This document shows positions 15,047-64,000 of a stretch of 64,000 nt of DNA, one piece after another; within the stretch, counting starts at the first letter, position 1, and each line of letters starts with the position of its first letter. The stretch lies in NCBI GenBank assembly GCA_040755495.1, contig JBFMAT010000001.1, positions 101,009 to 165,008 of the forward strand. The letters are read 5' to 3'. This DNA is from Chloroflexota bacterium (lineage in GTDB: Bacteria > Chloroflexota > Limnocylindria > Limnocylindrales > CSP1-4). The translations under genes and the position numbers were made by a program. The notes below the pieces were generated by a model. It was given only the letters and a program-made list of their open reading frames with translations, made no database searches and was not told where the DNA came from.

Positions 15047-15091
15047 GGATTCCCGGGGCCCGCGATCGACGGCCGTGCCCGGCGCCGCGGG

Positions 15092-16498: not shown

Positions 16499-16529
16499 CC
16501 GAGGCTGCCCCGACGGCGGTCACCCGTGC

Positions 16530-18689
16530 TCACGCGCGTGCCGCGACCTCCTCCGTCGCCCGGTCGCGGGCGACCGTCACGGCCTGGCGGACCGCGAACC
16601 GTCGCGTCTCGCCGGGCGCCAGCCGGACCGGCCACGAGACCAGCAGCCCGCTGCCCTGGTACACGCGCTCGAAGCCGGCCTCGGAGTTCGAGATCGTCTC
16701 GATCGGCGCCCACCAGGCGTCGGCGGCCGGCTCGAACGAGGCCCGCACCGCGACGCCCACCCAGTCGTTGCCGTAGCCGAGGGCGGTGGTCGAGGCGGCC
16801 CGGCCGGCCGCGTCATGGGCCGAGCGCGCGCCGGCGACGTCGTACCACGCGGACGGGTTGCCACCGCCGCCCAAGAGGTGGAGCGACAGCTCGAGGCCCA
16901 GCCGGGTCTCGATCGCGTCGCCGCCGCGGTGGTGGACCTCGAGCTCGATGACCAGCTCCGGGTCCAGGCGACCGCCCAGCATCCGGATCGTCTTGCCCAC
17001 GGTGAGCGGCTGGCCGTGCGCCGTACCGTTCCGTGACAGCGAGACCTGCCCGGGCGCGAGATGGTCCACCGCGAACTCGCCGTCGCGGAAGTCGCCGAGC
17101 TCCACCTCGCCGGCCGTCGCGACGGCCTCGGGGGTCACGTCCGGCGCCAGGAACCGCACCAGGCCCGTCCGGCGCTCGTGGTCGTCGTAGAACAGGCGAC
17201 GGGACAGCCCGGGCTCCTTGACCATCACCAGGTCGTGGATCGAGGCGGGGGCGCCGCCCTCGGCCGCCGGGCCGTCGTCGCCGGGCGGCTTCGCCTCGTG
17301 CGCCAGAAGCGTCTCGTGGTACGCCTCCGGCCGCCGGCGCAGGACGGCGGCCATCGCGTGGCGCGCGGCTCGCAGGTCCCAGCTGCCGATGCCGCCGCCC
17401 TCGGCCGGCTTGACCGTGACCACCTGGCCCGGATCCGCGAGGTAGGCCTCGGTCAGCCCGTCGAGGTCGAGGTCCGTGAGCTGCGCGATGCGCGGCCAGC
17501 CGATGATCGCGTCCGCGGCGTCCTCGGCGGCGATCAGGTGCTCGTACGTGGCGAGGCGCATGTGCGAGATGTAGATCCCGCCGAACAGCCCGTGCCAGTA
17601 GCAGTCGTTGGACTGGCCCCGGTGGAGGTGGTCGAGCGCGCCGGTCTTGTCCGCCCCCGAGGGCATCGACGCGACCTTGGCCGACGTCCGGAGCATCTGC
17701 TTGTGGAGGTCGTTGATCTCGCGGTACTTGACCTGGAAGTTGCGCCAGAACCCGCCGCGCAGCCAGCGCGCCTCGGGACGGCGTTCCGCGACGGCCTGGT
17801 GGAGCAGTGGCGCGAACACGGCGGTCTCGCCGGGCGGCAGCGCCCACTCGCCCATCTCCGCGTACGACGAGGTGGGGACGTACAGCCGGCCGATCGGCGG
17901 CTGGCGGTCCAGCCACTGCGAGGGCGTCACGGTCGTGAGCCAGTCCGCGTTGGCCTCGATCGCCTCGAAGAACCGCTCCACCCAGCGGCCGCCGCCCCAG
18001 CAGTGCTCGTAGGTCGTGGGCCAGGCGCCGAACTTCTCGCCGTCGTCGCCCATCATCCCGACCCGGTCGCCGGCCTCGGTCGCGTGGTCGCGCAGGTAGC
18101 CGATGACGTCCTCCACGGACCCGAACGGGATCCGGTAGCGCAGGCCCTGCTCGGTGCCGAACACGGTCAGCAGCCGGCCCTGGTCATCGGTCGTGTAGGC
18201 GCCCCACAGGTTCTCCTCGGGGATCGCCGCCGCCCGGAAGTGCTGGTCGTCGAGGATCGTCCAGCGGTAGCCGGCCGTGGCCAGCGACGTGGGCAGGTCC
18301 GGCTCCCACACGCGCTCCGCCAGCCAGGCGCCCTGGGGGCGGCGCCCGGTGATGCCCTCGATCACGGCCGCCATGCGGGTCAGCTGGTCGACCCGGTCGA
18401 GCTCGGGGAGCGACGCCAGCACCGGCTCGTACAGGCCGCCGCCGAGCAGCTCCACCTGGCTGCTGGCGACCAGCGACGCCAGCCGGTCCAGGAACTCCGG
18501 CCGCTCGGCCGCCAGCCACTCCAGCAGCGGCCCGGTGTAGTGGAGCGAGAGGCGCACGCCCGGGTGACGCTCGAGGGCCTCGAGCATCGGCAGGTACGCG
18601 TGGTCGAAGACCTCCGCGAACACCCAGCCGAAGTTGCCGACGGGCTGGTGGTTGTGGATGGCCAGCGCCAGCGAGATCCGGGGGGCCAA
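16530..18689 (-). CDS. GH57 family alpha-amylase / 4-alpha-glucanotransferase
   Basis: Last 719 codons of artefactual ORF 16530..23156. TTG start at 18689, with GAGGA 7 nt upstream. Contains LALAIHNHQPVGN, ...WLAERVWEP..., ...DDGEKFGAWP..., ...QSNDCYWHGLFGGIY. Confidence 0.8.
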   Translation of the reverse strand: MAPRISLALAIHNHQPVGNFGWVFAEVFDHAYLPMLEALERHPGVRLSLHYTGPLLEWLAAERPEFLDRLASLVASSQVELLGGGLYEPVLASLPELDRVDQLTRMAAVIEGITGRRPQGAWLAERVWEPDLPTSLATAGYRWTILDDQHFRAAAIPEENLWGAYTTDDQGRLLTVFGTEQGLRYRIPFGSVEDVIGYLRDHATEAGDRVGMMGDDGEKFGAWPTTYEHCWGGGRWVERFFEAIEANADWLTTVTPSQWLDRQPPIGRLYVPTSSYAEMGEWALPPGETAVFAPLLHQAVAERRPEARWLRGGFWRNFQVKYREINDLHKQMLRTSAKVASMPSGADKTGALDHLHRGQSNDCYWHGLFGGIYISHMRLATYEHLIAAEDAADAIIGWPRIAQLTDLDLDGLTEAYLADPGQVVTVKPAEGGGIGSWDLRAARHAMAAVLRRRPEAYHETLLAHEAKPPGDDGPAAEGGAPASIHDLVMVKEPGLSRRLFYDDHERRTGLVRFLAPDVTPEAVATAGEVELGDFRDGEFAVDHLAPGQVSLSRNGTAHGQPLTVGKTIRMLGGRLDPELVIELEVHHRGGDAIETRLGLELSLHLLGGGGNPSAWYDVAGARSAHDAAGRAASTTALGYGNDWVGVAVRASFEPAADAWWAPIETISNSEAGFERVYQGSGLLVSWPVRLAPGETRRFAVRQAVTVARDRATEEVAARA

Positions 18690-18757
18690 CGGTGCGTCCT
18701 CTGGGGGTGGGTGGGTGGTGGGCAGGACCGGGGGGTCGGTCGCGGCGCCCCTGCGGC

Positions 18758-20968
18758 TCAGCCCGTCTCGGCGGGCGCGGCTCGGGGCACGCCGGGCGCG
18801 GTCAGGGGCACGGCGGCGCGCGCCGCCGGGAGGTACAGCCGCTCCACGTACTCGTGGAGCATCCGGGTGGTGGAGAAGCGCCAGATCGTGCTGGCGATGG
18901 AGTTGCGCATGAGCTGCGTCCAGCGGGCCGGGAACCCCTGCGCGTCCCGCTCGTAGTAGGCGGGGACCAGCTCCTGCTCCAGGATCCGGTACAGGTCCTG
19001 GGCATCGGCCCAGTCCTGGGCGCCATCGTCCGGGTTGGTCTCGCGCCCGCCGATCGCCCACCCGTTGTCGCCGGTCCAGCCCTCGTCCCACCAGCCGTCG
19101 AGCACGCTGACGTTGACGATGCCGTTGGCGGCGGCCTTCATGCCCGAGGTGCCGGAGGCTTCGAGCGGGCGCCGGGGGTTGTTGAGCCACACGTCCACGC
19201 CCTGGACGAGGAACCGGGCGATCCGGATGTCGTAGTCCTCGAGGATGAACACCCGGTTGCGGAGCTTGGCGCCCCGCGAACGCCCGAAGATGTCCTGGAT
19301 CACGCCCTGGCCCGGCCGGTCCGCCGGGTGCGCCTTGCCGGCGAAGATGAACTGGACCGGCCGATCCGGGTCCCAGACCAGCCGGGCCAGCCGGTCGTGG
19401 TCCGAGAACAGCAGCGAGGCCCGCTTGTAGGTCGCGAACCGGCGCGCAAAGCCGATCGTGAGGATCGACGGGTCCAGGATCTCCTCGAGCTCCTCGAGCG
19501 TGGACGGCGCCTCGCCGTGACGGGCGAACTGGCTGCGCAGCCGGCCCCGGGCGAAGATCGCGAGCTCCAGCTTCTGGCGCTGGTGCGCCTCCCACAGCTC
19601 GCGCGTGGGCACCTTGTCGATGCGCTCCCAGAACCGGCCCCTGGCCGGCTGGTCGTCCATCCGGTCGAGGTTCGCGTTGGTCCAGCGCTCGAGCGCGTCG
19701 CGCACCGGCTGGCCCACCCACGACGGCGTGTGGACGCCGTTGGTGATGCCCAGGATGTCGTGCGGGGCCACGCCCTGCCAGGTCGCGTTGGCGGTGTGGC
19801 CGTGGAGCTGGGACACCGCGTTGGCGCCCGTCGTGAGCCGGAGCGAGAACGCGGTCATGTCGAACTGCGACGGGTCGCCGTCCACGCCCCGCCCGAGGTC
19901 CAGCACGGTTTGCATCGGCACGCCGCCGGTGCCCGGCCGCCCGTCGCCGTCGAGCAGCGGCGCGGCGACCCGGCGGACGAGGTCGACGTCGAAGCGCTCG
20001 TTGCCGGCAGCGACCGGGGTGTGGATCGTGAACACGCTGTTGCGCCGGATCTCCGGCCACGCTCCCTCGATCGGCGTGCCCGCGGCCACCAGCTCCCGCG
20101 CCCGCTCCGCGAGCAGGAACGCGGAGTGGCCCTCGTTGAGGTGCCACACGGCGGGGTCCAGGCCCAGGGCCCGCAGCGCCCGGACGCCGCCCACGCCCAG
20201 CACGAGCTCCTGGTGCAGGCGCATCTCCCGGCCGCGCACGTAGAGCATGTGGGTGATCGGGCGGTCCGAGTCGTCGTTGTCGGGGACGTCCGTGTCCAGC
20301 AGCAGGACCGGCACCCGCCCGACCTGCACCATCCACACCGCGGCGAACAGCTCGCGGCCGGGCAGCTGCACGCGCACCGTCAGCGGCTGGCCGAGGCGGT
20401 CGAGGGCGCGCAGGATCGGCAGCCGGGCGAGCTCGTAGTCCGGGTAGGCGTGCTCCTGGTGCCCGTCGGCGTCGATCGTCTGGCGGAAGTAGCCCTTGCG
20501 GTACAGGAGCCCCACGCCGACCAGCGGCAGGGCCATGTCCGAGGCCGTCTTCATGTGATCGCCGGCGAGCACGCCGAGGCCGCCCGAGTAGATGCCGAGC
20601 GACTCGTGGAACCCGTACTCCGCGCAGAAGTAGGCGATCGGGCCGTTGAGCTCCTTGCCGTGGTGGCGCGCGAACCAGTGCCCCGTGCCGTTGGCCATGT
20701 ACTCGTCGAACTCGCGGACGATGTCGTCGTACTCGGCGAGGAAGGCGGGGTTGTCCAGGAGCTGGTCCCACTGGACCGGGCCCTGGAGCAGCGGGACGGG
20801 GTTGCGGTAGCGGGCCCAGGCCGCGGCGTCGATCCGCGAGAACAGGATGCGGGTCCGCGGGTGCCAGCTCCACCACAGGTTGTAGGCGAGCCGTCGGAGG
20901 CCCTCGAGGGCGGGCGGCAGGTGGAAGTGCGCGCCGGGCGCGACGGGGACTTGGACGAGGGGCTCCAT
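18758..20968 (-). CDS. glgP: Alpha-glucan phosphorylase (GT35)
   Basis: ORF 18758..20989; the ATG at 20968 is preferred over the GTG at 20989. Contains LAYNLWWSWHP, GGLGVLAGDHMKTASD and TSGMKAAANG (PLP Lys region). Confidence 0.85.
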   Translation of the reverse strand: MEPLVQVPVAPGAHFHLPPALEGLRRLAYNLWWSWHPRTRILFSRIDAAAWARYRNPVPLLQGPVQWDQLLDNPAFLAEYDDIVREFDEYMANGTGHWFARHHGKELNGPIAYFCAEYGFHESLGIYSGGLGVLAGDHMKTASDMALPLVGVGLLYRKGYFRQTIDADGHQEHAYPDYELARLPILRALDRLGQPLTVRVQLPGRELFAAVWMVQVGRVPVLLLDTDVPDNDDSDRPITHMLYVRGREMRLHQELVLGVGGVRALRALGLDPAVWHLNEGHSAFLLAERARELVAAGTPIEGAWPEIRRNSVFTIHTPVAAGNERFDVDLVRRVAAPLLDGDGRPGTGGVPMQTVLDLGRGVDGDPSQFDMTAFSLRLTTGANAVSQLHGHTANATWQGVAPHDILGITNGVHTPSWVGQPVRDALERWTNANLDRMDDQPARGRFWERIDKVPTRELWEAHQRQKLELAIFARGRLRSQFARHGEAPSTLEELEEILDPSILTIGFARRFATYKRASLLFSDHDRLARLVWDPDRPVQFIFAGKAHPADRPGQGVIQDIFGRSRGAKLRNRVFILEDYDIRIARFLVQGVDVWLNNPRRPLEASGTSGMKAAANGIVNVSVLDGWWDEGWTGDNGWAIGGRETNPDDGAQDWADAQDLYRILEQELVPAYYERDAQGFPARWTQLMRNSIASTIWRFSTTRMLHEYVERLYLPAARAAVPLTAPGVPRAAPAETG

Positions 20969-21062
20969 GAGCGGGCAATGATAGCCCACGCGCCGGGCGT
21001 GTGAACCGGTTTAGGCCGCGGCACGGGCCGCGTCTCCGGCCGCTACGATGCGGCGCATGACC

Positions 21063-22541
21063 ATGCGCGTCGCGCTGCTCGCCGCCGAGTGCGAGCCGTG
21101 GGCCAAGACGGGCGGCCTCGCGGACGTGGTGGACGCGCTCGCGCGGGCCCTCGGCCGGCTGCCGGAGGCGGGCACGGAGCTCGCGGCGCCCGTGGACGTG
21201 TTCCTGCCCCGCTACCGGTCCGTGCCCGTCCCCGCCGACGCCACCCGCGAGCCCGTCCTGCGCATCGAGGACCCAGCGGGCGGGGCGCCGATCGAGGTCA
21301 CGATCGTCGACGTCGCGGCGGACGGCTACCGGCTGCGGCTGGTGGACGTGCCGCGCGCCTTCGACCGCGATGGCTTCTACGACCACCCCGACGACCCGTG
21401 GCGGTTCGCCGTCCTGTGCCGCGCGGCGCTGGCCGCGCTGCGGCGGGACGGCACGCCGCTCGACGTCCTGCACGTCCACGACTGGCACACGGGCCCCGCG
21501 CTCCTCGAGCGGGCCCGCGGCGAGGTCGCGGGCGACCCGTTCCTGGCGCGCATGGCGGTCGTCGCGACGCTCCACAACCTCGCCTACCACGGCTGGACGC
21601 CGCTGGCGCAGGTCCAGCAGCTGGGCCTGGTGCCGGGCGAGCCGCTGGCCGGCAGCAACCCCGACGGCATCGACCTCCTGCGCACCGCCATCGAGCGGTC
21701 CGAGATCGTCAACACGGTCTCGCCCGGCTTCGCCCGCGAGGCGCTCACGCCGGCCTTCGGCATGGGCCTCGACGAGGCGCTGCGCGCGAAGGGCGACCGG
21801 TTCCTGGGCATCCTCAACGGCATCGACCCGGCCGTCTGGGATCCCGCGACGGACGCGGCGATCGCGGCGCCGTACTCGCGGGCGTCGCCCGGGGGCAAGG
21901 CGGCCTGCCGGCGCGACCTCCTGGGCCGGCTCGGCTTCGATCCCGACGACGACGGCGCCGTGGCCGGCATGATCGGGCGGATGGACCCGCAGAAGGGGTT
22001 CGACCTGCTTGCCGACGGCGCGCGGGACCTCCTCGCGGCGGGCGTGCGGATCGTCGTCCAGGGCAGCGGCCACGCGTCGCTCGCCGACCCGTTCCGGGCG
22101 CTGGCGGCGGCCAGCCCCGCCCGGGTCGCCCTCATCGAGCGCTTCGACCGGGACATGGCGCGGCGGATCTACGCCGGCGCCGACCTGTTCCTCATGCCGT
22201 CGCGGTTCGAGCCCTGCGGGCAGGGCCAGATGATCGCCCTGCGCTACGGGACGCCGCCCGTGGTGCGGCGGACCGGCGGCCTCGCGGACTCCGTGATCGA
22301 CGCGGACGAGCGGCCGGGCGAGGGGACCGGGTTCGTGTTCGATGCCGCGACGCCGCGGGCGCTGGTGGCGGCCGTCGTGCGGGCGGCGGCGCTGCGGGCC
22401 GCGGGCACGGGCGCGTGGGCCGCGCTCGTGGACCGCGGGATGGCCGTCGACTTCGCCTGGGACACGGGGCCCGCATCGGCGTACCTCGCGGCCTACCGGC
22501 GGGCGGTCGCGATCCGTCGGGCCGAGCGAAGCCGGGGCTAG
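21063..22541 (+). CDS. glgA: Glycogen/starch synthase (GT5, ADP-glucose type)
   Basis: ORF 21048..22541. Starts MRVALLAAECEPWAKTGGLADVV (KTGGL motif), with ...PSRFEPCGQGQM... later. Divergent from glgP. Confidence 0.85.
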   Translation: MRVALLAAECEPWAKTGGLADVVDALARALGRLPEAGTELAAPVDVFLPRYRSVPVPADATREPVLRIEDPAGGAPIEVTIVDVAADGYRLRLVDVPRAFDRDGFYDHPDDPWRFAVLCRAALAALRRDGTPLDVLHVHDWHTGPALLERARGEVAGDPFLARMAVVATLHNLAYHGWTPLAQVQQLGLVPGEPLAGSNPDGIDLLRTAIERSEIVNTVSPGFAREALTPAFGMGLDEALRAKGDRFLGILNGIDPAVWDPATDAAIAAPYSRASPGGKAACRRDLLGRLGFDPDDDGAVAGMIGRMDPQKGFDLLADGARDLLAAGVRIVVQGSGHASLADPFRALAAASPARVALIERFDRDMARRIYAGADLFLMPSRFEPCGQGQMIALRYGTPPVVRRTGGLADSVIDADERPGEGTGFVFDAATPRALVAAVVRAAALRAAGTGAWAALVDRGMAVDFAWDTGPASAYLAAYRRAVAIRRAERSRG

Positions 22542-53628: not shown

Positions 53629-54969
53629 ATGCGCACCGAACGCGTGCTCATCATGGGCGCCGCTGGCCGTGACTTCCATGACTTCAACGTCGTCTACCGC
53701 GACGACCCGTCGGTCGAGGTCGTCGCCTTCACGGCCACCCAGATCCCCGGCATCGCCGACCGCCGCTATCCGAGCGAGCTGGCGGGCGATCGCTACCCGG
53801 CCGGGATCCCGATCCGCCCCGAGGCGGAGCTCGAGACGCTGATCCGGGACCTCGAGGTGGACACGGTCGTGTTCGCCTACAGCGACGTCAGCCACGAACA
53901 GGTGATGCACGCCGCCTCGCGCGTCCTCGCCGCCGGCGCGGACTTCGAGCTCCTGGGGCCCAACCGGACGCTGCTCGACAGCTCGCGACCCGTCGTGGCC
54001 GTCTGCGCGGTCCGCACGGGCTCGGGGAAGAGCCAGACCAGCCGCTACGTCGCCCAGGCGCTCGAGGCACAGGGCCTCAAGGTGGCGGTCGTCCGGCACC
54101 CGATGCCCTACGGCGACCTCGTCGCCCAGCGCGTCCAGCGCTACGAGACGTACGCGGACCTCGACCGCCACGACACCACGATCGAGGAGCGCGAGGAGTA
54201 CGAGCCGCACCTCGACGCCGGGCGGCTCGTGTTCGCGGGCGTGGACTACGAGCAGATCCTGCGGGCCGCCGAGGCCGAGGCGGACGTGGTCATCTGGGAC
54301 GGCGGCAACAACGACCTGCCGTTCTACCGCCCGGACCTCCACATCGTGGTGGCCGACCCGCTCCGCCCCGGCCACGAGCTGCGCTACCACCCGGGCGAGG
54401 CCAACCTGCGCCAGGCGGACGTGGTCGTGATCAACAAGGTGGACTCGGCGACGCCCGAGGCCCTGGCCACGGTCCGCGCCGCGATCACCGAGGTCAACGC
54501 GGACGCCGTGATCGTCGAGGCGCGGTCCTCGCTGGCCCTCGAGGGTGGCGAGATCCGGGGCCGGACGGTGGCGGTCGTCGAGGACGGCCCGACGCTGACC
54601 CACGGCGGCATGACGTACGGGGCGGGGGTGGTCGCGGCGAAGCGGTTCGGCGCCGCCGAGATCGTGGATCCCCGGCCCTACGCGGCCGGCGAGCTCGCCG
54701 ACACGCTGGCGAAGTACCCGCTGCTCGACCGGCTGCTGCCGGCGATGGGCTACGGCGACAAGCAGATCCACGAGCTGGAGGCCGCCCTCACGGCGATCCC
54801 CGCCGACGTGGTCCTGTCGGCGACGCCCATCGACCTCACGCGCGTGCTCTCGGTGCCCAAGCCGGTGGTCCGCGTGCGCTACGAGCTGGAGCCGCTGTCC
54901 GCTGCCTTGGACGAGGCCCTGGCCCCGGTCGTCGTCCGCGCGAAGGAGGCGCTCGCGGGGGCCCACTGA
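53629..54969 (+). CDS. Cyclic 2,3-diphosphoglycerate synthetase-like P-loop protein (COG2403-type predicted GTPase)
   Basis: ORF 53452..54969 trimmed to the ATG at 53629, with GAGGA upstream. Contains VLIMGAAGRDFHDFNVVYRDDP...FTATQIP and the P-loop VRTGSGKSQTS. The family assignment is from memory. Confidence 0.65.
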   Translation: MRTERVLIMGAAGRDFHDFNVVYRDDPSVEVVAFTATQIPGIADRRYPSELAGDRYPAGIPIRPEAELETLIRDLEVDTVVFAYSDVSHEQVMHAASRVLAAGADFELLGPNRTLLDSSRPVVAVCAVRTGSGKSQTSRYVAQALEAQGLKVAVVRHPMPYGDLVAQRVQRYETYADLDRHDTTIEEREEYEPHLDAGRLVFAGVDYEQILRAAEAEADVVIWDGGNNDLPFYRPDLHIVVADPLRPGHELRYHPGEANLRQADVVVINKVDSATPEALATVRAAITEVNADAVIVEARSSLALEGGEIRGRTVAVVEDGPTLTHGGMTYGAGVVAAKRFGAAEIVDPRPYAAGELADTLAKYPLLDRLLPAMGYGDKQIHELEAALTAIPADVVLSATPIDLTRVLSVPKPVVRVRYELEPLSAALDEALAPVVVRAKEALAGAH

Positions 54970-55062
54970 GACCCCTCCGGACGGGCCGGCATCGCGCGCG
55001 TCGGCCCGCCCGGCCCGTCGCGGGCAGCCACATCGCGCCACGCGGCGCGCAGGCGGGAGTTG

Positions 55063-56394
55063 ATGGAATCGATCGTCGAACGGGCGCTGCTCACCACCTT
55101 CCGGTGGCAGGCGCGACACGTGATGCGCATCGGCGAGCTGGACCTCGCGGGCACGCCCGCGCCGCCCAGCCGCCCGACCTCGCTGTACGCGCACGTACCG
55201 TTCTGCGAGGTGCTGTGCCCGTTCTGCACCTTCCACCGGGTGCCGTTCCGCGAGGAGCGGTCGCGGCGCTACTTCGCCGCGCTGCGAGACGAGCTGCGGC
55301 TGTACCACCGGGCCGGCTTCTCGTTCACCAGCCTGTACGTGGGTGGCGGGACGCCGACCTGCGCCGTCGAGGAGCTGATCGAAACCCTGGCGCTGGCGCG
55401 CGAGCTGTTCGGCGTCACGGAGATCTCGGTCGAGACGAACCCGATGGACCTCCGGCCCGCGGTCGTCGACCGGCTGGCCGCGGCCGGCGTGAGCCGCCTG
55501 TCGGTGGGCGTGCAGAGCTTCGACGATCGCCTGCTCAAGTCGATGGAGCGCTACGACAAGTACGGCTCGAGCGCCCAGATCATCGAGCGGCTGGACGCCG
55601 CGGCGGGCGCCTTCGCCACGCTCAACGTGGACCTCATGTACAACCTGCCGAACCAGGACGAGGCGTCGATCGACCACGACATCGACGTGCTGCTCGGCCT
55701 CCGCTCGAACCAGGTCTCCCTGTACCCGCTGATGACCGCGCGCACGGCCGAGGCGAGGATCCGCGCCACGATGGGCGCCGCGGGGCCGGGCCGGGTGCGC
55801 GAGTACTACCGGCGATTCCTGGCGCGGCTGCGCCCCGCGTTCGAGCCGCAGTCCTGCTGGTGCTTCTCGCGGACGGCATCGACCATCGACGAGTACGTCG
55901 TGGACGCGGACAACTACGTCGGCGTGGGCAGCGGCGCGTTCAGCTACCTCGACGGCGTGCTGTACGCGACCACCTTCTCGCTCAACCACTACGAGGACCG
56001 CGTCGGGCGCGGGCTGACCGGGATCACCGGGATGCGCGCCTACTCGATCGGCGATCAGGTCAAGAACTCGTTCCTCAACCGGCTGTTCGGGCTGGAGCTG
56101 TCGAAGGCGTGGGTCGCGGAGCGCTGGGGCGGCGAGTTCGAGGCGCGGCTGTGGTACGCGCTGGACGCGATGAAGGCCGTGGGCGCGCTCACCGAGGACG
56201 ACGTGGCCTGGCGGCTCACCGACCGTGGCATGTACTACTGGGTGCTGATGATGTCCGAGTTCTTCGAGTCCGTGAACCGCTTCCGCGAGACGATGCGGGC
56301 GCGGATCCGGGCCGAGCTCGAGGAGCCGGAGCTGGGTCACGGCGGCCCGCTGTCGCCGGTGGTGGGCGGCGCGGCGCTGGCGCCGAGATCCTGA
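55063..56394 (+). CDS. Radical SAM protein, HemN/coproporphyrinogen-III-oxidase-like family
   Basis: ORF 55060..56394, with ATG at 55063 and GGGAG upstream. Contains LYAHVPFCEVLCPFCTF (CxxxCxxC), ...YVGGGTP..., ...RLSVGVQSF.... Confidence 0.8.
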   Translation: MESIVERALLTTFRWQARHVMRIGELDLAGTPAPPSRPTSLYAHVPFCEVLCPFCTFHRVPFREERSRRYFAALRDELRLYHRAGFSFTSLYVGGGTPTCAVEELIETLALARELFGVTEISVETNPMDLRPAVVDRLAAAGVSRLSVGVQSFDDRLLKSMERYDKYGSSAQIIERLDAAAGAFATLNVDLMYNLPNQDEASIDHDIDVLLGLRSNQVSLYPLMTARTAEARIRATMGAAGPGRVREYYRRFLARLRPAFEPQSCWCFSRTASTIDEYVVDADNYVGVGSGAFSYLDGVLYATTFSLNHYEDRVGRGLTGITGMRAYSIGDQVKNSFLNRLFGLELSKAWVAERWGGEFEARLWYALDAMKAVGALTEDDVAWRLTDRGMYYWVLMMSEFFESVNRFRETMRARIRAELEEPELGHGGPLSPVVGGAALAPRS

Positions 56395-56621: not shown

Positions 56622-57647
56622 TCAGCCGCGGGACGCCACCGGGTCGACGACCAGCACCGCGGTCCCGGCCACCTGCCCGGCGGCCAGCCTGGCGAGGGCC
56701 GTGTTCGCCGCTGCCAGGGGGTGCGTCTCGACGTCCGTGGTGATCCCGGTCCGGGCCGCCAGCGTCAGGAACTCGCGGGCGTCGTCGCGGGTGACGTTGG
56801 CGACGCTGCGGATCGAGCGCTCCCACCACAGGTCCTCGTAGGGCAGCTCCGGCACCCGGTCCAGGTGGATGGCGTTGATCGCCACGACCCCGCCCCGGTC
56901 CAGCGCCCGGAGCGCGGCCGCCACCACGGAGCCCACCGGCGCGAACGTCACGGCGGCGTCCAGGGCCACCGGCGGGCGCTCGTCCAGCCCGCCGGCCCAC
57001 GCGGCGCCGAGCTCGATGGCGCGGGCCCGCTCGGACGCCGCGCGGGTGGCTACGTACGCGTCCACGCCCCACGCCCGGGCGACCTGCAGCGCCAGGCGCG
57101 CGGAGGCCCCGAACCCGTACAGCCCCAGCCTCGCCCCCGCCGATGCCGGCCCGATGCCGGCCACCCGCAGCGCGCGGTACCCGATGACGCCCCCGCACAG
57201 CAGCGGCGCGGCGGCGAGGTCCGGGAAGGCGGCGGGCAAGGGCACGGCGTAGGCCGCCCGCACGATGATTGCCTCCGCATAGCCGCCGTCGCGGTCCCAG
57301 CCGGTGAACGTGGCAGCCTCGCACAGGTTCTCGCGGCCCGAGACGCAGAACCGGCACGTTGCGTCGGTGCCGGCGAGCCACGTGACGCCGGCCCGGTCCC
57401 CGGCCGACCAGCCCGCGACGTCGGGCCCCAGCGTGTCCACCACGCCGACGACCTGGTGCCCGGGCACGATCGGCAGCCGGCGCGCGGGGAGGTCCCCCTC
57501 GCAGATCTGGAGGTCGGTCCGGCACACCCCGCAGGCCGTGACGCGCAGCCGCAGCTCGCCCGGCCCGGGCTCCGGGACGACACGCTCCGTCGCCGCCAGC
57601 GGCGACGACGAGGCGGGCCCGGTAGCCAGGAGGACCATCGCGCGCAT
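56622..57647 (-). CDS. Zinc-dependent alcohol dehydrogenase family protein
   Basis: Last 341 codons of artefactual ORF 56622..58667, with ATG at 57647. Contains ACGVCRTDLQ, PGHQVVGVV, CRFCVSGRENLC and GLYGFGASA. Confidence 0.85.
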   Translation of the reverse strand: MRAMVLLATGPASSSPLAATERVVPEPGPGELRLRVTACGVCRTDLQICEGDLPARRLPIVPGHQVVGVVDTLGPDVAGWSAGDRAGVTWLAGTDATCRFCVSGRENLCEAATFTGWDRDGGYAEAIIVRAAYAVPLPAAFPDLAAAPLLCGGVIGYRALRVAGIGPASAGARLGLYGFGASARLALQVARAWGVDAYVATRAASERARAIELGAAWAGGLDERPPVALDAAVTFAPVGSVVAAALRALDRGGVVAINAIHLDRVPELPYEDLWWERSIRSVANVTRDDAREFLTLAARTGITTDVETHPLAAANTALARLAAGQVAGTAVLVVDPVASRG

Positions 57648-57779
57648 GGTCCCAAGCGTATCGCCGGGATCGGGACCGGTCACGGAACGGGCGGACGGTC
57701 TGGCGCGCGGTTCGGGACGAACGGCAGGCGCAGCAGCGGCGGATCGGACCGACGATGACGGTGTCCGAAGGAGAGCGCC

Positions 57780-58139
57780 ATGCACGGAACGACACGCACC
57801 CGTCCCACGATCCACCCGGCCGGTGCCGGCGTCAATGCGGTGGTCTGGATCGAGCCCGGGCGGGCGATCGTCGTCCGCGGCACGGCCACGGGCGAGCCCG
57901 CATCCCTCGAGCTGCCGATCCCGCACGTCCCCACGGAGACCGCGCCCGCGCTCGCGGAGGTCGCCCACCGGATCGGCGACGTGGATCGCGTGCTCGTCCT
58001 GGGAACCGACGACCTGCGGACGGCGCTCGAGCGCGAGATCGTGGCCATCGGCCACCACCCCGAGTCGATCCGCGAGGAGCCGAACCCGGGGCCCTTCGAC
58101 GAGGCGGACCTCGTCGCCCGGCTCCGCCGCCTCGCCTGA
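57780..58139 (+). CDS. Hypothetical protein (119 aa)
   Basis: ORF 57780..58139. A strong AAGGAG lies 6 nt upstream of the ATG. Composition is balanced (VVWIEPGRAIVVRG...VLVLGTDDLRTALEREIVAIGHHPESI). I do not recognise a family. Confidence 0.45.
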   Translation: MHGTTRTRPTIHPAGAGVNAVVWIEPGRAIVVRGTATGEPASLELPIPHVPTETAPALAEVAHRIGDVDRVLVLGTDDLRTALEREIVAIGHHPESIREEPNPGPFDEADLVARLRRLA

Positions 58140-58344
58140 AGGCACGAGCCGTGTGCCCGCGCCGCAGGCCGTCGTCCCCGCCCGGGCGTGCCGTCCGGCA
58201 GGGCGCTCCGGCCGACCGGCCCGGTGGCCCCGCGACCGACGGCACTCCCGCAGCCGAGCACGCCGGGCGGAGCATGACGCCGCGGGCCCGGAGCGCGCGA
58301 CCCGTTCGTGCGTGCCGGCCCGGACCACGTGAGGTCGCCGCCCG

Positions 58345-58860
58345 ATGACGCTCCCGACATCCCCCGCTCCCACCGCGGATCCGATCGCGGCACTCAGCGC
58401 CTCCTGGTTCGGGGCAGGGCTGTCCCCAGAAGCGGTGGCCCGGCTTGCCGGGATCGCCGAGCTGCGGGACGTGGCCGCCGGCACGGAGCTCACCAAGGAG
58501 GGCCACATCACCGACGCGTTCTCGGTGGTGCTCACCGGGCGCGTGGCGCTCCGGATGCTGGTCCCCGAGCGGGGCATGGTCACGATCCTGACCGTCGAGC
58601 CCGGCGACGTCATCGGCTGGTCCGCGATCGTGCCGCCGCACCGCGGCACCGCCAACGCCGTCGCCATCGAGCCCGTGCGCGTCCTCGAGCTCCAGGGCGA
58701 GCGGCTGCGGGCGCTGCTGCGCTCGGACCATGCTTTGGCCGCCTCCGTCTATCCACGCCTGCTGCAGGCCGTCGCGCGCCGGCTCGCCGCCACGCGCCTC
58801 CAGCTGCTCGACCTGTTCGCCCGCGAGGAGTGGGGCCGCCACGAGGTCCAGCCGTGGTGA
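58345..58860 (+). CDS. Stand-alone cyclic-nucleotide-binding-fold protein (no HTH)
   Basis: ORF 58345..58860. The beta-roll pattern ...AGTELTKEGHITDAFSVVLTGRVALRMLVPERGMVTILTVEPGDVIGWSAIV...RGTANAVAIEPVRVLEL... is followed by one C-helix only. Its stop overlaps the next gene's start (GTGA). Confidence 0.7.
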   Translation: MTLPTSPAPTADPIAALSASWFGAGLSPEAVARLAGIAELRDVAAGTELTKEGHITDAFSVVLTGRVALRMLVPERGMVTILTVEPGDVIGWSAIVPPHRGTANAVAIEPVRVLELQGERLRALLRSDHALAASVYPRLLQAVARRLAATRLQLLDLFAREEWGRHEVQPW

Positions 58861-60878
58861 GCGACGACCGCTCGCCGTTCCCGTCCTGGCCCGCGGCCGC
58901 GCCGGCCGCGCCGGTGCCGGCCCTGCCCGCCGCCGGACCCTGGTTCCTCGCCCGCCCGAACCTCGGCGTGCTCATCGACCTGCTCCGATCCGACGGCCGC
59001 ACCGTCATCGGCCCGACCGTCGAGGACGGCACGATCGTGTTCGCGGAGATCGCGTCGGCCGACGACCTGCCGGCCGGCGTTGGTGACGTCCAGGCGCCCG
59101 GCAGCTACCGGCTGGTGACGCACGCCAACCGGCGCGTGTTCGACTACACGGTGGGGCCGCAGGGCCCCAAGCGCTGGCTGTTCCCGCCCCGGGCACCGCT
59201 GAGCGTGGGCCACCGCGACGGCGGTGCGGTCACGTTCGAGCCGGCCGCCACCGAGCCCTCGCGGCTCGCGCTGATCGGCGTGCGCGCCTGCGAGCTGGCC
59301 GCGATGGGCGTCCAGGACCGCGTGTTCCTGGGCGGGCCGTTCACGGACGAGGACTACCGGGCGCGGCGGGGGAACGTCCTGGTCGTCGCGGTCAACTGCA
59401 CCACCGCCTCGTCGACCTGCTTCTGCACCTCGATGGGCACCGGCCCCGAGGCGCGTGGCGGCTACGACCTGGTGATGACCGAGGTGGACGACGGGTTCGT
59501 CGTCCGGGCCGGGTCTCCCGAGGGCGCCGACCTCATCGCCCGGCTGCCGGTCCGCGCGGCCGACGCCGGCCTGGTCGTCGAGGCATCGGACGCGGTGGCC
59601 CGCGTCGCCGCCGCGATGGGCGACCCGGTGCCCACGGCCGGCCTCCACGACCGCCTGCTCGCGCAGTGGGACAGCCCGCACTGGGTGGAGATCGCCGACC
59701 GCTGCCTCGCCTGCGCCAACTGCACGCTCGTGTGCCCGACCTGCTTCTGCTCCAGCGTCGTCCAGCGCTCCGACCTCGACGGCAAGGTGTCGGCGTCGGA
59801 TCGGGTCTGGGACTCCTGCTTCACGGTCGGGTTCGCCAAGGTCGCCGGCGGCAACTTCCGGACGCGCTACCGCGACCGCTACCGGCAGTGGCTGACCCAC
59901 AAGTTCGCGACCTGGATCGACCAGTTCGGCACGTTCGGGTGCGTCGGGTGCGGGCGGTGCATCGCCTGGTGCCCGGTGGGCATCGACGTCCGCGCGGAGC
60001 TGATGGCCATCGCGCCGCCGCTGGCGACGCGCGCCGAGGCCACGCCGGTGCTGCCGGTCGCCGCGACCCCCGGCGACTACGTCACCGGGCGGGTCATCGC
60101 CAAGCGCCCCGAGACGGCCGACGTCACCACGCTCGTGCTGGGCGACCTCGACCCCGCGTTCCTCGCCGGCCGCCCGGGCCAGTTCGCGATGGTCACGCTG
60201 CCCGCCTTCCCGCCGCTGCCGATCTCGATCTCGCGCTTCGGCCGGGACACGATCGAGCTCACGATCCGGGCCGCCGGCCCGGCGACCGCGGCGCTCATCG
60301 GCCTCTCGACGGGCGACCAGATCGGCCTCCGCGGCCCGCTGGGCACGTCCTGGCCGGTGGACCGCGCGGTGGGCCACGATGTCGTCGTCGTCACCGGCGG
60401 CATCGGCCTCGCCCCGCTGCGGCCGCTGCTCGACGCGCTGATCGCCCAGCGCAACCGGTTCGGGACGATCCACCTGTACTACGGTGCGCGGACGCCCGCC
60501 GACCAGCTGTACCGCGAGGAGCTGCGCGGGCTCGCGGCCCGCGGCGACATCGACGTCCAGCTGATCGTCGACCGGGCCGGCGAGGAGTGGACCGGACCCG
60601 TGGGCGTGGTCACCCACCTGATCGACCGCGCGACCTGGGACGGCTCGCGGAGCTTCGGCTTCGTGTGCGGCCCGGAGCGGATGATGGAGGCCACGGCCGA
60701 GGCCCTCGAGGCGCGCGACCTGTCCGCGGAGCGGATCTTCGTCACCCTCGAGCGCCACATGGAGTGCGGCATCGGGCTGTGCGGCCACTGCCAGGTCGGC
60801 CGCCTGTTCGTGTGCCGCGACGGGCCGGTGTTCTCGCTGCCACAGCTCGGGGACCTGCTCGGCCGGGAGGGCATCTGA
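58857..60878 (+). CDS. Group 3b [NiFe]-hydrogenase fused beta (AsrA-like 4Fe-4S) and gamma (AsrB-like FAD/NAD(P), 2Fe-2S) subunit
   Basis: Last 673 codons of artefactual ORF 58308..60878, with GTG at 58857. Beta part: CLACANCTLVCPTCFC, CVGCGRCIAWCP. Gamma part: RPGQFAMV, VVVTGGIGLAPL, CGIGLCGHCQVG. Confidence 0.8.
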   Translation: MSDDRSPFPSWPAAAPAAPVPALPAAGPWFLARPNLGVLIDLLRSDGRTVIGPTVEDGTIVFAEIASADDLPAGVGDVQAPGSYRLVTHANRRVFDYTVGPQGPKRWLFPPRAPLSVGHRDGGAVTFEPAATEPSRLALIGVRACELAAMGVQDRVFLGGPFTDEDYRARRGNVLVVAVNCTTASSTCFCTSMGTGPEARGGYDLVMTEVDDGFVVRAGSPEGADLIARLPVRAADAGLVVEASDAVARVAAAMGDPVPTAGLHDRLLAQWDSPHWVEIADRCLACANCTLVCPTCFCSSVVQRSDLDGKVSASDRVWDSCFTVGFAKVAGGNFRTRYRDRYRQWLTHKFATWIDQFGTFGCVGCGRCIAWCPVGIDVRAELMAIAPPLATRAEATPVLPVAATPGDYVTGRVIAKRPETADVTTLVLGDLDPAFLAGRPGQFAMVTLPAFPPLPISISRFGRDTIELTIRAAGPATAALIGLSTGDQIGLRGPLGTSWPVDRAVGHDVVVVTGGIGLAPLRPLLDALIAQRNRFGTIHLYYGARTPADQLYREELRGLAARGDIDVQLIVDRAGEEWTGPVGVVTHLIDRATWDGSRSFGFVCGPERMMEATAEALEARDLSAERIFVTLERHMECGIGLCGHCQVGRLFVCRDGPVFSLPQLGDLLGREGI

Positions 60879-61726
60879 TGACGACCCGGGGTGCCCGTGG
60901 CCGGCTGCGCGTGGGCGTGGCCAAGCTCGCGTCCTGCGACGGCTGCCAGCTGACCATCCTCGACCTCGAGGAGGAGCTGCTCGCGATCGCCGAGCGGATC
61001 GACATCGTGGAGTTCCCGGAGGCCAGCTCGCTGCGCTCGGCCGGGCCGTACGACGTCCTGCTGGTGGAGGGCTCGGTGAGCTCGCCCGACCAGGCCGCCG
61101 AGATCGTGGAGCTGCGCCGCCAGACGAAGACGCTGGTCACGATCGGCGCCTGCGCCACGGCCGGCGGCATCCAGGCGCTGCGCAACTGGTCCGATCACGA
61201 GGCGTTCCGGACCGCGGTCTACCCCCGGCCGGAGCTCGTGGAATCGCTCGACACCGCAACGCCGATCAGCGATCACGTCAAGGTGGACGCCCAGCTGGTG
61301 GGCTGCCCGATCAGCCCCGACCACCTGCGCGAGCTGCTGGCCGCCCTGCTCGTGGGTCGCCGGCCGCAGATCCGCGAGGAGGCCGTGTGCCTCGAGTGCA
61401 AGCGCCGTGGCTACGTGTGCGTGATGGTGGCGACCGGGACGCCGTGCCTCGGCCCGCTGACCCAGACCGGGTGCGGGGCGCTGTGCCCGGCCTTCGGGCG
61501 GGGCTGCTACGGGTGCTTCGGCCCACGCGAGCAGCCGCACGGGGAGAGCCTGGCCAGGACGTTCGCGGACCTCACCGCGGGGCCCGCGGACGTGGCGCGG
61601 CTGTTCGCCGGGTTCACGGCCTGGACGCCGCCGTTCCGCGCGATCGTGGACCAGCACGGGGGCCCGCCGGGACGGACGCCGGGCGGTCCGGCGACCAAGG
61701 AAGGAGTCGGCGATGCACGGCGATGA
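60878..61726 (+). CDS. hyhS: Group 3b [NiFe]-hydrogenase small (delta) subunit
   Basis: Part of ORF 59666..61726. The ATG at 60878 overlaps the previous TGA by 1 nt. Contains LASCDGCQ, GACATAGG, CLECKRRG, CLGPLTQTGCGALCP and GCYGCFGP. Confidence 0.85.
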   Translation: MTTRGARGRLRVGVAKLASCDGCQLTILDLEEELLAIAERIDIVEFPEASSLRSAGPYDVLLVEGSVSSPDQAAEIVELRRQTKTLVTIGACATAGGIQALRNWSDHEAFRTAVYPRPELVESLDTATPISDHVKVDAQLVGCPISPDHLRELLAALLVGRRPQIREEAVCLECKRRGYVCVMVATGTPCLGPLTQTGCGALCPAFGRGCYGCFGPREQPHGESLARTFADLTAGPADVARLFAGFTAWTPPFRAIVDQHGGPPGRTPGGPATKEGVGDARR

Positions 61727-63068
61727 CGGCGGCACCCTGTCCGTCGCCGCGCCCGGCGCCGAGCGCGAGTTCCGGGTCGAGTACCTGACCCGGGTCGAGG
61801 GCGAGGGGACGCTCCTGCTCCGCGTCCGGGGCACGGAGGTCGTGGAGGCGCGCCTCAAGATCTTCGAGGCGCCGCGCTACTTCGAGCGCCTGGTGGTGGG
61901 GCGGACCGGCGACGAGGTGATCGACATCGTCGCCCGGATCTGCGGCATCTGCCCGATCGCGTACCAGATGTCCGCCGTCCACGCGTTCGAGGACCTGTAC
62001 GGGGTCGAGATCGATCCCTCCGTGCGGGCCCTGCGACGGCTGCTGTACTGCGGCGAATGGATCCAGAGCCACGCGCTCCACGTGTACCTGCTCCATGCCC
62101 CCGACTACCTGGGCTACCCGTCGGCGCTGGCGATGGCGGCCGACCACCGCGCGGTCGTCGAGCAGGGGCTGGCGATCAAGCGGGTGGGCAACCAGCTGAT
62201 CGCGGCCCTCGGCGGGCGGGCCGTGCACCCCGTCTCGGTGCGCGTGGGCGGCTTCTCACGGGCGCCCCGGCGGCGCGACCTCGACGCCGTCCGACGGGCG
62301 CTGGACACGGCCGTCGAGCAGTCCCGGGAGACCGTGCGGCTCGTGGCCTCGTGGGATCCGCCGGCGCTCGAGCACGCCCAGCCCCTGGTGGCCCTGCGCC
62401 ACGCCGCCGAGTACCCCTACAACGACGGCCGGATCGTGTCCACGGACGGCCTGGACCTCGCGCCCGGGGCATGGCGCGAGGCGTTCGCGGAGCAGCAGGT
62501 CGAGGGCACCAACGCGCTCCACGCCCGGACCCACGAGGGAGCCGTGTACCTGCTCGGCCCGACGGCGCGGATCACCCTCGCCGCGGACCAGCTGCATCCG
62601 CTCGCGTCCGAGGCCCTCGCCGCGACCGGCCTCCGGGACGCGATCCGGGTCAACATCCACCGCTCGATCGTCGCCCGCGCGGTCGAGCTCCTCCACGCCT
62701 GCGCCGAGGCGCGCGACCTCATCGACGGGTACCGCCCGCCCGTTGAGCCGCGCGTCGCCTTCACGCCGCGGCCCGGGGTTGCCGCCTGGTCCACGGAGGC
62801 CCCCCGCGGCCTCCTCCACCACCGGTACGAGGTCGACGAGCAGGGGCACGTCCTCCATGCCCAGATCGTCCCCCCGACCAGCCAGAACCAGGGGGCCATC
62901 GAGGCCGATCTCGCGGCGTTCGCCCCGAGCGTCCTCGACCTCCCGCAGGCCGAGGCCACCAAGCGCCTCGAGATGCTGATCCGGGCGTACGACCCGTGCA
63001 TCAGCTGTGCCACTCACTTCCTCGACCTGTCGATCGTGGAAGCGGGGGCCGAGGAGTGGACCGGATGA
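61713..63068 (+). CDS. hyhL: Group 3b [NiFe]-hydrogenase large (alpha) subunit
   Basis: ORF 61713..63068. Contains RVEGEG, RICGICPIAY (N-terminal CxxC) and DPCISCATH (C-terminal CxxC-x2-H), followed by a 16-aa cleavable extension. Confidence 0.9.
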   Translation: MHGDDGGTLSVAAPGAEREFRVEYLTRVEGEGTLLLRVRGTEVVEARLKIFEAPRYFERLVVGRTGDEVIDIVARICGICPIAYQMSAVHAFEDLYGVEIDPSVRALRRLLYCGEWIQSHALHVYLLHAPDYLGYPSALAMAADHRAVVEQGLAIKRVGNQLIAALGGRAVHPVSVRVGGFSRAPRRRDLDAVRRALDTAVEQSRETVRLVASWDPPALEHAQPLVALRHAAEYPYNDGRIVSTDGLDLAPGAWREAFAEQQVEGTNALHARTHEGAVYLLGPTARITLAADQLHPLASEALAATGLRDAIRVNIHRSIVARAVELLHACAEARDLIDGYRPPVEPRVAFTPRPGVAAWSTEAPRGLLHHRYEVDEQGHVLHAQIVPPTSQNQGAIEADLAAFAPSVLDLPQAEATKRLEMLIRAYDPCISCATHFLDLSIVEAGAEEWTG

Positions 63069-63586
63069 CCCAGCTCGCTCCGCCCTCCGTCCGTCTGCTC
63101 GTCTGCGGCAACGCGGATCGCGGCGACGATGGCGCGGCCCTGTCCGCCGTCGCGACGCTGCTGCCGTCGCTGCCGTCGGCCATGCTCGAGCGCCTGGAGG
63201 TGCGCCGCTGCGGCCACCTCCGGGTGGAGGACCTGCTCGAGGTGCCCGAGGGGGAGGTCGCGGTGGTCGTGGACGCGGCCGTGGGGATCGCGCCCGGCCA
63301 CGTCGTCACGCTGCCGATCCGCGACATCGTGGCTGACCCCGCCGCGCCCACGCCTCGCTCCTCGCACGAGCTGCCGGTGGACCAGGTCCTGGGGCTGGCC
63401 GACGTGATGCGCCCGGGCGGCCTGCCGGAGGGCACGTTCGTGGGCATCGGCGGACGCCGGTTCGGCTACGGGCGCCCGCTCTCACGCTCGGTGCGGCTCA
63501 ACATGCCGGCGTTCCAGGCGGCGATCGCCGCGGAGCTGTCCCGACTGACGCACGTTCCGGCGGACCGGCCCACCACGCCCGGGTAG
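63065..63586 (+). CDS. Hydrogenase maturation endopeptidase
   Basis: ORF 62996..63586 trimmed to the ATG at 63065, which overlaps the large-subunit stop (ATGA). Contains LLVCGNADRGDDGAA, ...VVVDAA..., ...SSHELP.... Confidence 0.8.
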   Translation: MTQLAPPSVRLLVCGNADRGDDGAALSAVATLLPSLPSAMLERLEVRRCGHLRVEDLLEVPEGEVAVVVDAAVGIAPGHVVTLPIRDIVADPAAPTPRSSHELPVDQVLGLADVMRPGGLPEGTFVGIGGRRFGYGRPLSRSVRLNMPAFQAAIAAELSRLTHVPADRPTTPG

Positions 63587-63701
63587 GGCGGCGCCCGCGG
63601 CCGTCGACGCCCCGCGCTTGCCCGGCCGCCCGGGCCTCGGGCCGCGGTCCACGCTGCTCTCTCGGCGCCCAGCGACCCGGCCCGGCGATCACCTCGCGCT
63701 C

Positions 63702-63849
63702 GGTCGCCCGGCGACCCAACGAGCGCACGGTGCGACGCTTCGACCGCTGGGCGCCGGGTTCGTCGCGCCCACGGGGCTCGCCGCGCAACGAACGACGCGC
63801 TGAGCGACCGATCCGTCTCGCGCTGCGCCCGGACGACCGCTGGGCGACC
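63702..63849. repeat. Four-hairpin intergenic element, copy D (148 nt)
   Basis: GGTCGCCCGGCGACC (63702-63716), GACCGCTGGGCGCCG (63742-63756), GCGCTGAGCGACC (63797-63809) and GACCGCTGGGCGACC (63835-63849). In a gapless hand alignment to 30329-30476, about 115 of 148 positions are identical. Confidence 0.65.
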
Positions 63850-63884
63850 GGAGGGGGCCCCGAGGCCCGCGGCCCGGCGACGCG

Positions 63885-64000
63885 CTAGGCGCCACCCTCC
63901 GTGGCGGGCCGGCGCAGCGCGGCCCAGGGCCGCCCCGTGGACCGGGCCACGATCACGCCGCCGATGCACAGCGCGCCGCCGGCGATCGCGACCAGCGCGG
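63885..64000 (-). CDS. 3' end of an unidentified gene (hydrophobic C-terminus); 5' part lies beyond the right edge
   Basis: Reverse-complement reading gives ...ALVAIAGGALCIGGVIVARSTGRPWAALRRPATEGGA followed by TAG (cta at 63885-63887). Too short to classify. Confidence 0.25.
   Translation of the reverse strand, partial: ALVAIAGGALCIGGVIVARSTGRPWAALRRPATEGGA

Follow-up and report, generated by a model that had tools for sequence, protein, structure and literature searches.

A Stand-Alone Cyclic-Nucleotide-Binding-Fold Gene Is the Rule in Sampled Bacterial Group 3b [NiFe]-Hydrogenase Operons

We analyzed a stretch of 64,000 nucleotides (the window) from contig JBFMAT010000001.1 of a Chloroflexota bacterium of the order Limnocylindrales (assembly GCA_040755495.1, positions 101,009 to 165,008 of the forward strand), concentrating on a small gene at positions 58345-58860 of the window that encodes a stand-alone protein of the cyclic-nucleotide-binding (CNB) fold. 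It is the first of five overlapping genes, of which the other four encode the subunits and the maturation protease of a [NiFe]-hydrogenase. The features of the locus, in window coordinates, are the following:

58162..58344, + strand: conserved non-coding leader or promoter region (183 nt; blocks kept in 19 Chloroflexota loci)
58345..58860, + strand: stand-alone CNB-fold gene (open reading frame (ORF) of 171 amino acids with ATG start; hydrogenase-linked CNB family)
58603..58653, + strand: degenerate phosphate-binding cassette of the CNB protein, residues 87-103, GDVIGWSAIVPPHRGTA (alignment to GlxR and 3mdp)
58777..58818, + strand: distal C-helix motif of the CNB protein, residues 145-158, RRLAATRLQLLDLF (most conserved surface stretch of the family; alignment and AlphaFold2 (AF2) model)
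58857..60878, + strand: fused diaphorase gene, HyhB (Fer4_22, AsrA-like) plus HyhG (FAD/NAD(P)-binding, AsrB-like) (Pfam, NCBIfam and PDB)
60878..61726, + strand: HyhS, small subunit (Oxidored_q6; Pfam and NCBIfam)
61713..63068, + strand: HyhL, [NiFe] large subunit of group 3b type (NiFeSe_Hases; motifs RICGICP and DPCISCATH)
63065..63586, + strand: hydrogenase maturation endopeptidase (TIGR00072, 56.8 bits, over the cut-off)

The fused HyhBG protein carries the Pfam domains Fer4_22, NAD_binding_1 and DHODB_Fe-S_bind, and its best PDB matches are the beta and gamma subunits of Pyrococcus furiosus sulfhydrogenase I (9nez_B and 9nez_C). For HyhL the best NCBIfam matches were those of the sulfhydrogenases, ShyA/HydA, and in the PDB the group 3b alpha subunits of Thermococcus kodakarensis (5yxy_A, 218 bits) and of P. 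furiosus sulfhydrogenase I (9nez_D, 213 bits) scored above Mvh (154 bits) and the NAD-reducing enzyme (145 bits). The partner subunits gave ShyB/C/D and HydB/G/D as their best NCBIfam matches. With a sulfhydrogenase-alpha-like HyhL that has both cysteine pairs, and with HyhB, HyhG and the small subunit all present, the assignment of the hydrogenase to group 3b is well supported by sequence.

The reading frames of the five genes are closely packed. The TGA of the CNB gene (58858-58860) overlaps the GTG of HyhBG (58857-58859) within a GTGA read at 58857-58860, the stop codon of HyhBG and the ATG of HyhS share the TGATG at 60876-60880, the HyhS frame ending at 61726 overlaps HyhL, with its ATG at 61713, by 14 nt, and HyhL and the protease gene meet in the ATGA at 63065-63068. 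A preliminary description of the locus, made from the DNA letters alone, had listed these four junctions exactly so, and its view that the five genes form one tight group 3b operon was borne out by the overlapping frames and the subunit matches. The GTG at 58857 is the presumed start of HyhBG, with an in-frame GTG at 58914 as a possible alternative; the overlapping start is retained in at least six related loci. Scans of positions 57500-64000 for sigma-70 promoters and intrinsic terminators found nothing, a result that is uninformative at 74% GC.

The ATG of the CNB gene is preceded by a GAGG 10 nt to its 5' side, and the GC content at third codon positions (GC3) is 0.92, compared to 0.94-0.98 for the surrounding genes, with a similar GC pattern over the codon positions. 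The sole Pfam domain in the protein is PF00027 (cNMP_binding) at residues 41-128, with 48.1 bits against a curated cut-off of 27.5 bits and an E-value of 1e-12, and HTH_Crp was not found in the Pfam scan of the 171 residues. The NCBIfam matches were weak, of CNB type and far under threshold, so no curated family covers the protein. An AF2 model built with 41 homologues as input (mean pLDDT of 84.8) shows two short N-terminal helices, a beta-roll at residues 38-117 and two further helices, one short (118-127) and one long (129-166); no helix-turn-helix (HTH) and no output domain were present in the model beyond the roll and the helices. The model and the Foldseek comparison place the protein in the CNB fold, in which an eight-stranded beta-roll is flanked by N-terminal and B/C helices. 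Against the PDB, Foldseek gave a probability of 1.0 to many CNB structures, the best matches being the stand-alone CNB proteins 3mdp and 3gyd and the CNB domains of GlxR and Mycobacterium tuberculosis CRP, at 25-30% identity. The winged-helix or HTH_Crp domain that marks the C-terminus of Crp/Fnr proteins is missing, and the model terminates in one long helix. Because it lacks a DNA-binding domain, the protein is not a Crp/Fnr regulator; the preliminary description had likewise read it as a CNB beta-roll without such a domain, in agreement with PF00027 as the only Pfam match and with the predicted structure. Altogether 1041 homologues of conserved length were found, and an exhaustive search of 50%-identity cluster representatives (E <= 1e-10) returned 794 clusters, mostly of 150-175 amino acids. 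The closest genome match, with 95% protein identity, is 'Chloroflexi bacterium RBG_16_72_14'.

The linkage between the CNB gene and hydrogenase genes extends well beyond the window. In all 31 genome loci with a homologue (54-95% identity) the CNB gene is the immediate upstream neighbor of hyhB(G), and wherever the locus extends far enough the genes for the small subunit, the large subunit and the protease come next. Among nine more distant cluster representatives (34-43% identity), seven adjoin hyhB/hyhG: six are in complete hyh operons, one of them in Gimesia (Planctomycetota), and one is flanked by hyhB and hyhG, without genes for hydrogenase subunits in the vicinity. The other two are found elsewhere. 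For the reverse survey, metagenomes were scanned with a seed alignment of five HyhL proteins from CNB-linked operons, a query that biases the sample towards relatives of CNB-linked HyhL. It yielded a best 80 loci of 47-69% HyhL identity, 28 of which were too short to score. The others were distributed as follows:

HyhB-CNB-HyhG order: 39 loci
CNB-HyhB-HyhG order: 4 loci
CNB-HyhG, contig ending inside or before hyhB: 2 loci
clearly without a CNB gene: 4 loci
undecidable: 3 loci

The CNB gene is present in 45 of the 49 decidable loci (~90%); among the bacterial group 3b operons sampled, having it is the rule and lacking it the exception. Its usual place is between hyhB and hyhG, with a median spacing of 23-27 nt to its neighbors, counted from aligned end to aligned start. 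Plasmid p1 of Burkholderia thailandensis and Rhodococcus qingshengii TG-1 have the full order B-CNB-G-S-L-protease (hyhB, CNB gene, hyhG, hyhS, hyhL and protease gene), and in RefSeq both borders of the CNB gene are annotated with overlaps of 4-14 nt (B. thailandensis proteins WP_202821807-811). The layout seen in the window, with the CNB gene first and HyhB and HyhG fused, occurs in 30 loci that form one clade on a neighbor-joining tree of HyhL. It is a clade-specific variant, and the position of the CNB gene co-varies with the HyhB-HyhG fusion. The preliminary description had suggested looking for a conserved CNB gene at the position it has here; the linkage to hyh genes holds across phyla, but the position does not, being more commonly that between hyhB and hyhG. 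In the HyhL tree the loci without a CNB gene are scattered within CNB-bearing clades, which suggests that the gene is an ancestral component that was lost repeatedly.

Over 22 loci the mean identity of the CNB protein was 74%, as against 72-81% for HyhB, HyhG, HyhS and HyhL, and it tracks that of HyhL (r = 0.92); the CNB protein evolves at the pace of a structural subunit. In one locus (L036, 5907-8382) a HyhB-CNB-HyhG triplet of overlapping genes stands without a small or large subunit and is followed by topoisomerase VI genes, on a contig that bears signs of frameshifts. As this arrangement ties the CNB protein to the diaphorase pair, it suggests that the pair, and not the [NiFe] module, is its partner.

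The wider family has some further members of note. One protein that is not hydrogenase-linked (P0257) is encoded next to a beta-lactamase-fold gene and keeps an ATRHQLFDLY motif, a second (P0306) adjoins a DUF1801 gene and has no such motif, and a copy on a Streptomyces plasmid adjoins genes for a universal stress protein and glucose-6-phosphate dehydrogenase. The top matches among the cluster representatives (P0121 of 840 amino acids, P0123 of 532 amino acids, P0136 and P0151) include proteins with 2-5 tandem CNB domains of the same subtype, and one of these tandem proteins carries an N-terminal integrase Arm DNA-binding domain.

In canonical CNB domains a Glu of the phosphate-binding cassette binds the ribose 2'-OH and an Arg binds the phosphate. 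The cassette of the window protein reads GDVIGWSAIVPPHRGTANA, and in the HMMER alignment the GlxR sequence GELSIFDPGPRTSSA stands opposite GWSAIVPPHRATSTA of the family. Trp92 stands where the ribose-binding Glu would be, Gly101 occupies the column of the canonical Arg, and Arg100 lies one position early, so that the preliminary description was right to call the cassette non-canonical; the pattern G-E-[LM]-A-L ... R-[ST]-A of cAMP and cGMP receptors is absent. Conservation was measured over 52 hydrogenase-linked members with a threshold of at least 90%. At that level the roll keeps G65, P74, T83, G87, G91 and P98, which are structural Gly, Pro and Thr residues, together with S93 of the cassette, and 44 of the 52 members have Trp92. 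Conserved in the helices are L121, R122, R146, L147, R151, Q153, L155 and D156, a block with the motif RLxATRLQLLD(L/V)(F/Y). The family signature consists of GWS in the cassette and RLxATRLQLLD at the end of the C-helix.

The phosphate-Arg column is Gly, Ala or Ser in the clade of the window and Trp in the larger clade with the B-CNB-G order, which has an aromatic-rich cassette (GWSWLxPPYRWxFDARA), and 29 of the 52 members retain the shifted Arg100. No clade has a canonical cassette, and the residues lining the pocket vary from clade to clade while the distal C-helix stays constant. This argues for a conserved function in protein-protein contact and not in the recognition of cAMP or cGMP. Judging from these patterns, the function kept throughout the family may be a dimerization and/or docking contact, for which the distal C-helix motif is the candidate dimer or partner interface, and the ligand of the CNB protein, if any, is probably neither cAMP nor cGMP. 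No Cys or His is conserved across the 52 members, which disfavors a metal, heme or Fe-S sensor.

One core of the non-coding region upstream of the CNB gene, CGACGGCACTCCC (58237-58249, ~105 nt from the ATG), is invariant and has the same relative place in all 19 loci. It is kept in a locus with a different upstream gene (L008) and in loci with 67-69% identity of the CNB protein (L019 and L021). The region had no Rfam match, and the covariation term of RNAalifold was ~0 in alignments of 11 and 19 upstream sequences, and the idea of a riboswitch was rejected on these grounds. A small upstream ORF (ATG at 58274 to TGA at 58346-58348) was discarded, as neither its ATG nor its frame is conserved, and so were sigma-54 and DosR-box readings of ACGGCACTCCC made by eye, since the -12 element or the second half-site is not conserved. 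The element has more the look of a promoter or operator than of a riboswitch.

Further upstream lies an ORF of 119 amino acids (orf119, 57780-58139, + strand), which has a coding-like GC3 (0.93) and for which Pfam gave no match up to E <= 10. Sixteen related loci keep it as well, ~200-250 nt upstream of their CNB genes. In a Limnocylindrales metagenome-assembled genome (L008) it instead precedes a second, paralogous fused HyhB-HyhG gene of 672 amino acids and ~55% identity (6791-8809 and 8446-9894). This paralogue lies upstream of the CNB-HyhBG-S-L operon with an NAD-dependent epimerase gene after it, and neither hydrogenase subunits nor a CNB gene adjoin it. In the window, positions 56625-57653 of the opposite strand carry a zinc alcohol dehydrogenase gene, the stretch 53629-56394 encodes a radical SAM enzyme and a CobW/HypB-like P-loop protein, both of which adjoin the operon in relatives too, and a glycogen-metabolism cluster (amylase-like protein, phosphorylase and starch synthase) occupies 9894-22538. 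Neither hyp genes nor an adenylate cyclase were seen among the window ORFs scanned. Around the operons of B. thailandensis plasmid p1 (L123, 3311-4781) and of the R. qingshengii plasmid (L125, 35-613 and 10346-11716) there are stress- or dormancy-type genes for CBS-domain, universal stress and STAS proteins and for wax-ester/triacylglycerol synthase, a setting reminiscent of the hypoxia (DosR) context of Mycobacterium smegmatis Hyd3.

Of the better-known CNB proteins, the Crp/Fnr factors GlxR, M. tuberculosis CRP and E. coli CRP share with the window protein the beta-roll and the long C-helix, at 25-27% identity over ~145 residues in Foldseek, and their RRLxxT... helix aligns with that of the family up to the hinge. 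They differ in having a C-terminal HTH and the Glu and Arg-Ser/Thr that contact cAMP. The best match among solved structures is Gmet_1532 of Geobacter metallireducens, a structural genomics entry (PDB 3mdp; 48.9 bits, 30% identity, TM-score of 0.85 on the target). Its cassette is of a similarly non-canonical style (GVSSLIKPYHYTSSA), but it has Val at the position of the family's Trp and terminates before the TRLQLLD motif.

The closest parallel in a hydrogenase is HoxI of the group 3d soluble hydrogenase of Cupriavidus necator, for which we used the sequence of C. necator H16 pHG1. HoxI is a CNB-fold dimer in the HoxHYFUI2 enzyme that dissociates at high ionic strength and acts as an accessory subunit on the diaphorase side (PMC3189943); it has been termed a regulatory dimer (PMC12809855), with NADP(H) as its presumed ligand (PMC12319191). 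Like the window protein, it is a stand-alone CNB protein (~167 amino acids) without an output domain, has a degenerate cassette and has its gene in a cytosolic NAD(P)-linked [NiFe]-hydrogenase operon. The two proteins, however, aligned in BLASTP with an E-value of 12 and 18% identity, and the hidden Markov model of the family gave HoxI 56 bits, barely over the 45 bits of E. coli CRP and far from the 156-218 bits of members, and orthology was rejected on these grounds. HoxI keeps the Glu (GELG) and has neither GWS nor TRLQLLD, its partner module is the Complex-I-like HoxFU and not an AsrAB-like HyhBG, and hoxI follows hoxW, whereas the CNB gene stands before or between the diaphorase genes. What they share is thus a stand-alone CNB gene that belongs to a soluble NAD(P)-linked [NiFe]-hydrogenase operon, and on sequence grounds we treat them as separate recruitments of the fold, or at most as products of a very ancient split.

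Three recent papers mention the gene in passing, in each case as annotation only: it is called a 'small transcriptional regulator' in Frankia (PMC11879354), WP_013415449.1 within a cluster of Rhodococcus equi (PMC13332983) and HoxI in a methanotroph (PMC12319191). The statement in the preliminary description that no equivalent had been described in group 3b enzymes is therefore outdated. A literature search on CNB or cNMP proteins with [NiFe]-hydrogenases or diaphorases gave nothing beyond these mentions, and in the searchable literature there was no systematic description of the CNB gene as the rule in sampled bacterial group 3b operons, of a family signature distinct from HoxI or of the co-variation of position and fusion.

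Given that hyh synteny is conserved across phyla, the most economical explanation is that the CNB protein has an accessory role linked to the enzyme, as HoxI does. In our judgment the chances are about evenly balanced that the CNB protein, by analogy, serves the HyhB/HyhG diaphorase module as a non-catalytic accessory subunit or regulator. It would most likely be a fifth subunit of the bacterial group 3b hydrogenase, probably dimeric, which docks on the AsrAB-like NAD(P)-linked module and modulates it. Coupled translation would provide the protein in stoichiometric amounts and the conserved distal C-helix (RLxATRLQLLD) could serve as the protein-protein interface, while any ligand, be it NAD(P)(H) or another nucleotide, would be bound in a non-canonical mode, or the protein may be ligand-free. 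We infer the physical association with the enzyme from these data. The accessory-subunit idea of the preliminary description is partly supported, in that the synteny favors a hydrogenase-linked role.

Several observations weigh against this interpretation. The studied group 3b enzymes, the sulfhydrogenases I and II of P. furiosus and T. kodakarensis and Hyd3 of M. smegmatis, have homologous HyhB, HyhG, HyhS and HyhL and no CNB gene, and are described as four subunits from four structural genes, unlike the window with its HyhB-HyhG fusion and the CNB gene ahead of it. In M. smegmatis Hyd3 (MSMEG_3931-3927) the beta, gamma, delta, alpha and protease genes are contiguous without a CNB gene, and the chains of P. 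furiosus sulfhydrogenase I that were matched are alpha, beta and gamma, none of the matches being to a CNB chain. Since the systems with experimental data lack the gene, the CNB protein must be dispensable for core catalysis. The maturation protease shares the same operon, so that operon membership does not prove membership in the mature enzyme. Some family members are encoded away from any hydrogenase (L038, 4921-5412; L122, 2186-2668; L124, 6010-6447), and the bias of the reverse survey towards relatives of CNB-linked HyhL also counts here. Four apparent Rosetta-stone proteins joining CNB and Fer4_22 (P0160, P0268, P0124 and P0156) were rejected as frameshifted gene calls from error-prone assemblies in which real segments alternate with Arg/Pro-rich out-of-frame stretches; the fusions are artefacts and lend no support. 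Finally, no indels or extensions of HyhB or HyhG that correlate with the presence of the CNB gene were found in 14 sequences.

Other explanations of the gene were weighed on the same data. In a window of 74% GC with many long spurious ORFs on both strands, the frame could be spurious or the decaying remnant of a Crp/Fnr gene, but the Pfam E-value, the GC3, the more than 1000 homologues of conserved length and the synteny kept across phyla refute this, and it can be dismissed. A genuine receptor of cAMP, cGMP or another cyclic nucleotide, acting as an allosteric second-messenger switch of the hydrogenase, would fit the CNB fold found over the Pfam threshold, the cAMP-bound GlxR and M. tuberculosis CRP among the closest structures, Arg100 beside the canonical Arg position in the clade of the window, and the stress- or dormancy-type genes (universal stress and CBS proteins) near the named loci. 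We nevertheless consider it decidedly unlikely, as the ribose-binding Glu has become an almost invariant Trp, the Arg position is Gly, Ala, Ser or Trp depending on the clade with Arg100 present in little more than half of the members, and the rest of the pocket differs between clades.

It is unlikely, too, that the CNB protein is a transient maturation or assembly factor for the diaphorase, involved in Fe-S or FAD loading or in chaperoning HyhB/HyhG and absent from the mature enzyme. The maturation protease in the operon, the hyp genes that often follow and the dispensability of the CNB gene in some lineages agree with such a role, as does the lack of conserved cofactor-binding Cys or His, since the protein need not be catalytic. 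Coupled translation from a place between hyhB and hyhG points instead to production in stoichiometric amounts, the HoxI precedent is that of a stable but salt-labile subunit, and no CNB-fold protein is known to us as a chaperone of cofactor insertion. The Frankia paper's reading, a transcriptional or signaling regulator of the operon, which would have to work via a partner protein, draws on the resemblance of the domain and C-helix to a Crp/Fnr protein truncated at the hinge, on the conserved upstream blocks as a possible operator and on the homologues encoded away from hydrogenases. This we hold to be very unlikely: neither Pfam nor the model has a DNA-binding domain, it is rare for a regulator to be encoded between two structural genes with frames that overlap, as happens here in ~40 diverse loci, and the sequence constraint is that of the structural subunits.

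Within the preferred reading of an accessory subunit or regulator, a more specific version can be put forward tentatively. In it most bacterial group 3b hydrogenases would have five components, and the CNB protein would be a dedicated 'pseudo-receptor' that has lost cyclic-nucleotide binding and, seated on HyhB/HyhG, gates the passage of electrons between NAD(P)H and the [NiFe] site. It might be ligand-free, or it might hold NAD(P)H or another metabolite in its Trp-rich pocket. If this were true, aerobes would be able to control their fermentative H2 evolution in hypoxia at the post-translational level, and the CNB fold would have been recruited to a hydrogenase a second time, independently of HoxI.

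Group 3b hydrogenases are found widely among the aerobic bacteria of soil and water and are presumed to vent excess NAD(P)H as H2 in hypoxia. As the enzymes studied so far, from Thermococcales and M. smegmatis, come from systems without the CNB gene, the four-subunit picture may misdescribe most bacterial members. A conserved subunit with a sensor fold, if confirmed, would be an obvious regulatory handle and would be relevant to the heterologous expression of O2-tolerant, NADPH-linked enzymes for cofactor regeneration. The B-CNB-G-S-L arrangement occurs in cultured and tractable hosts, B. thailandensis, R. qingshengii, R. equi and Frankia, which makes the role of the CNB protein in group 3b hydrogenases a directly testable question.

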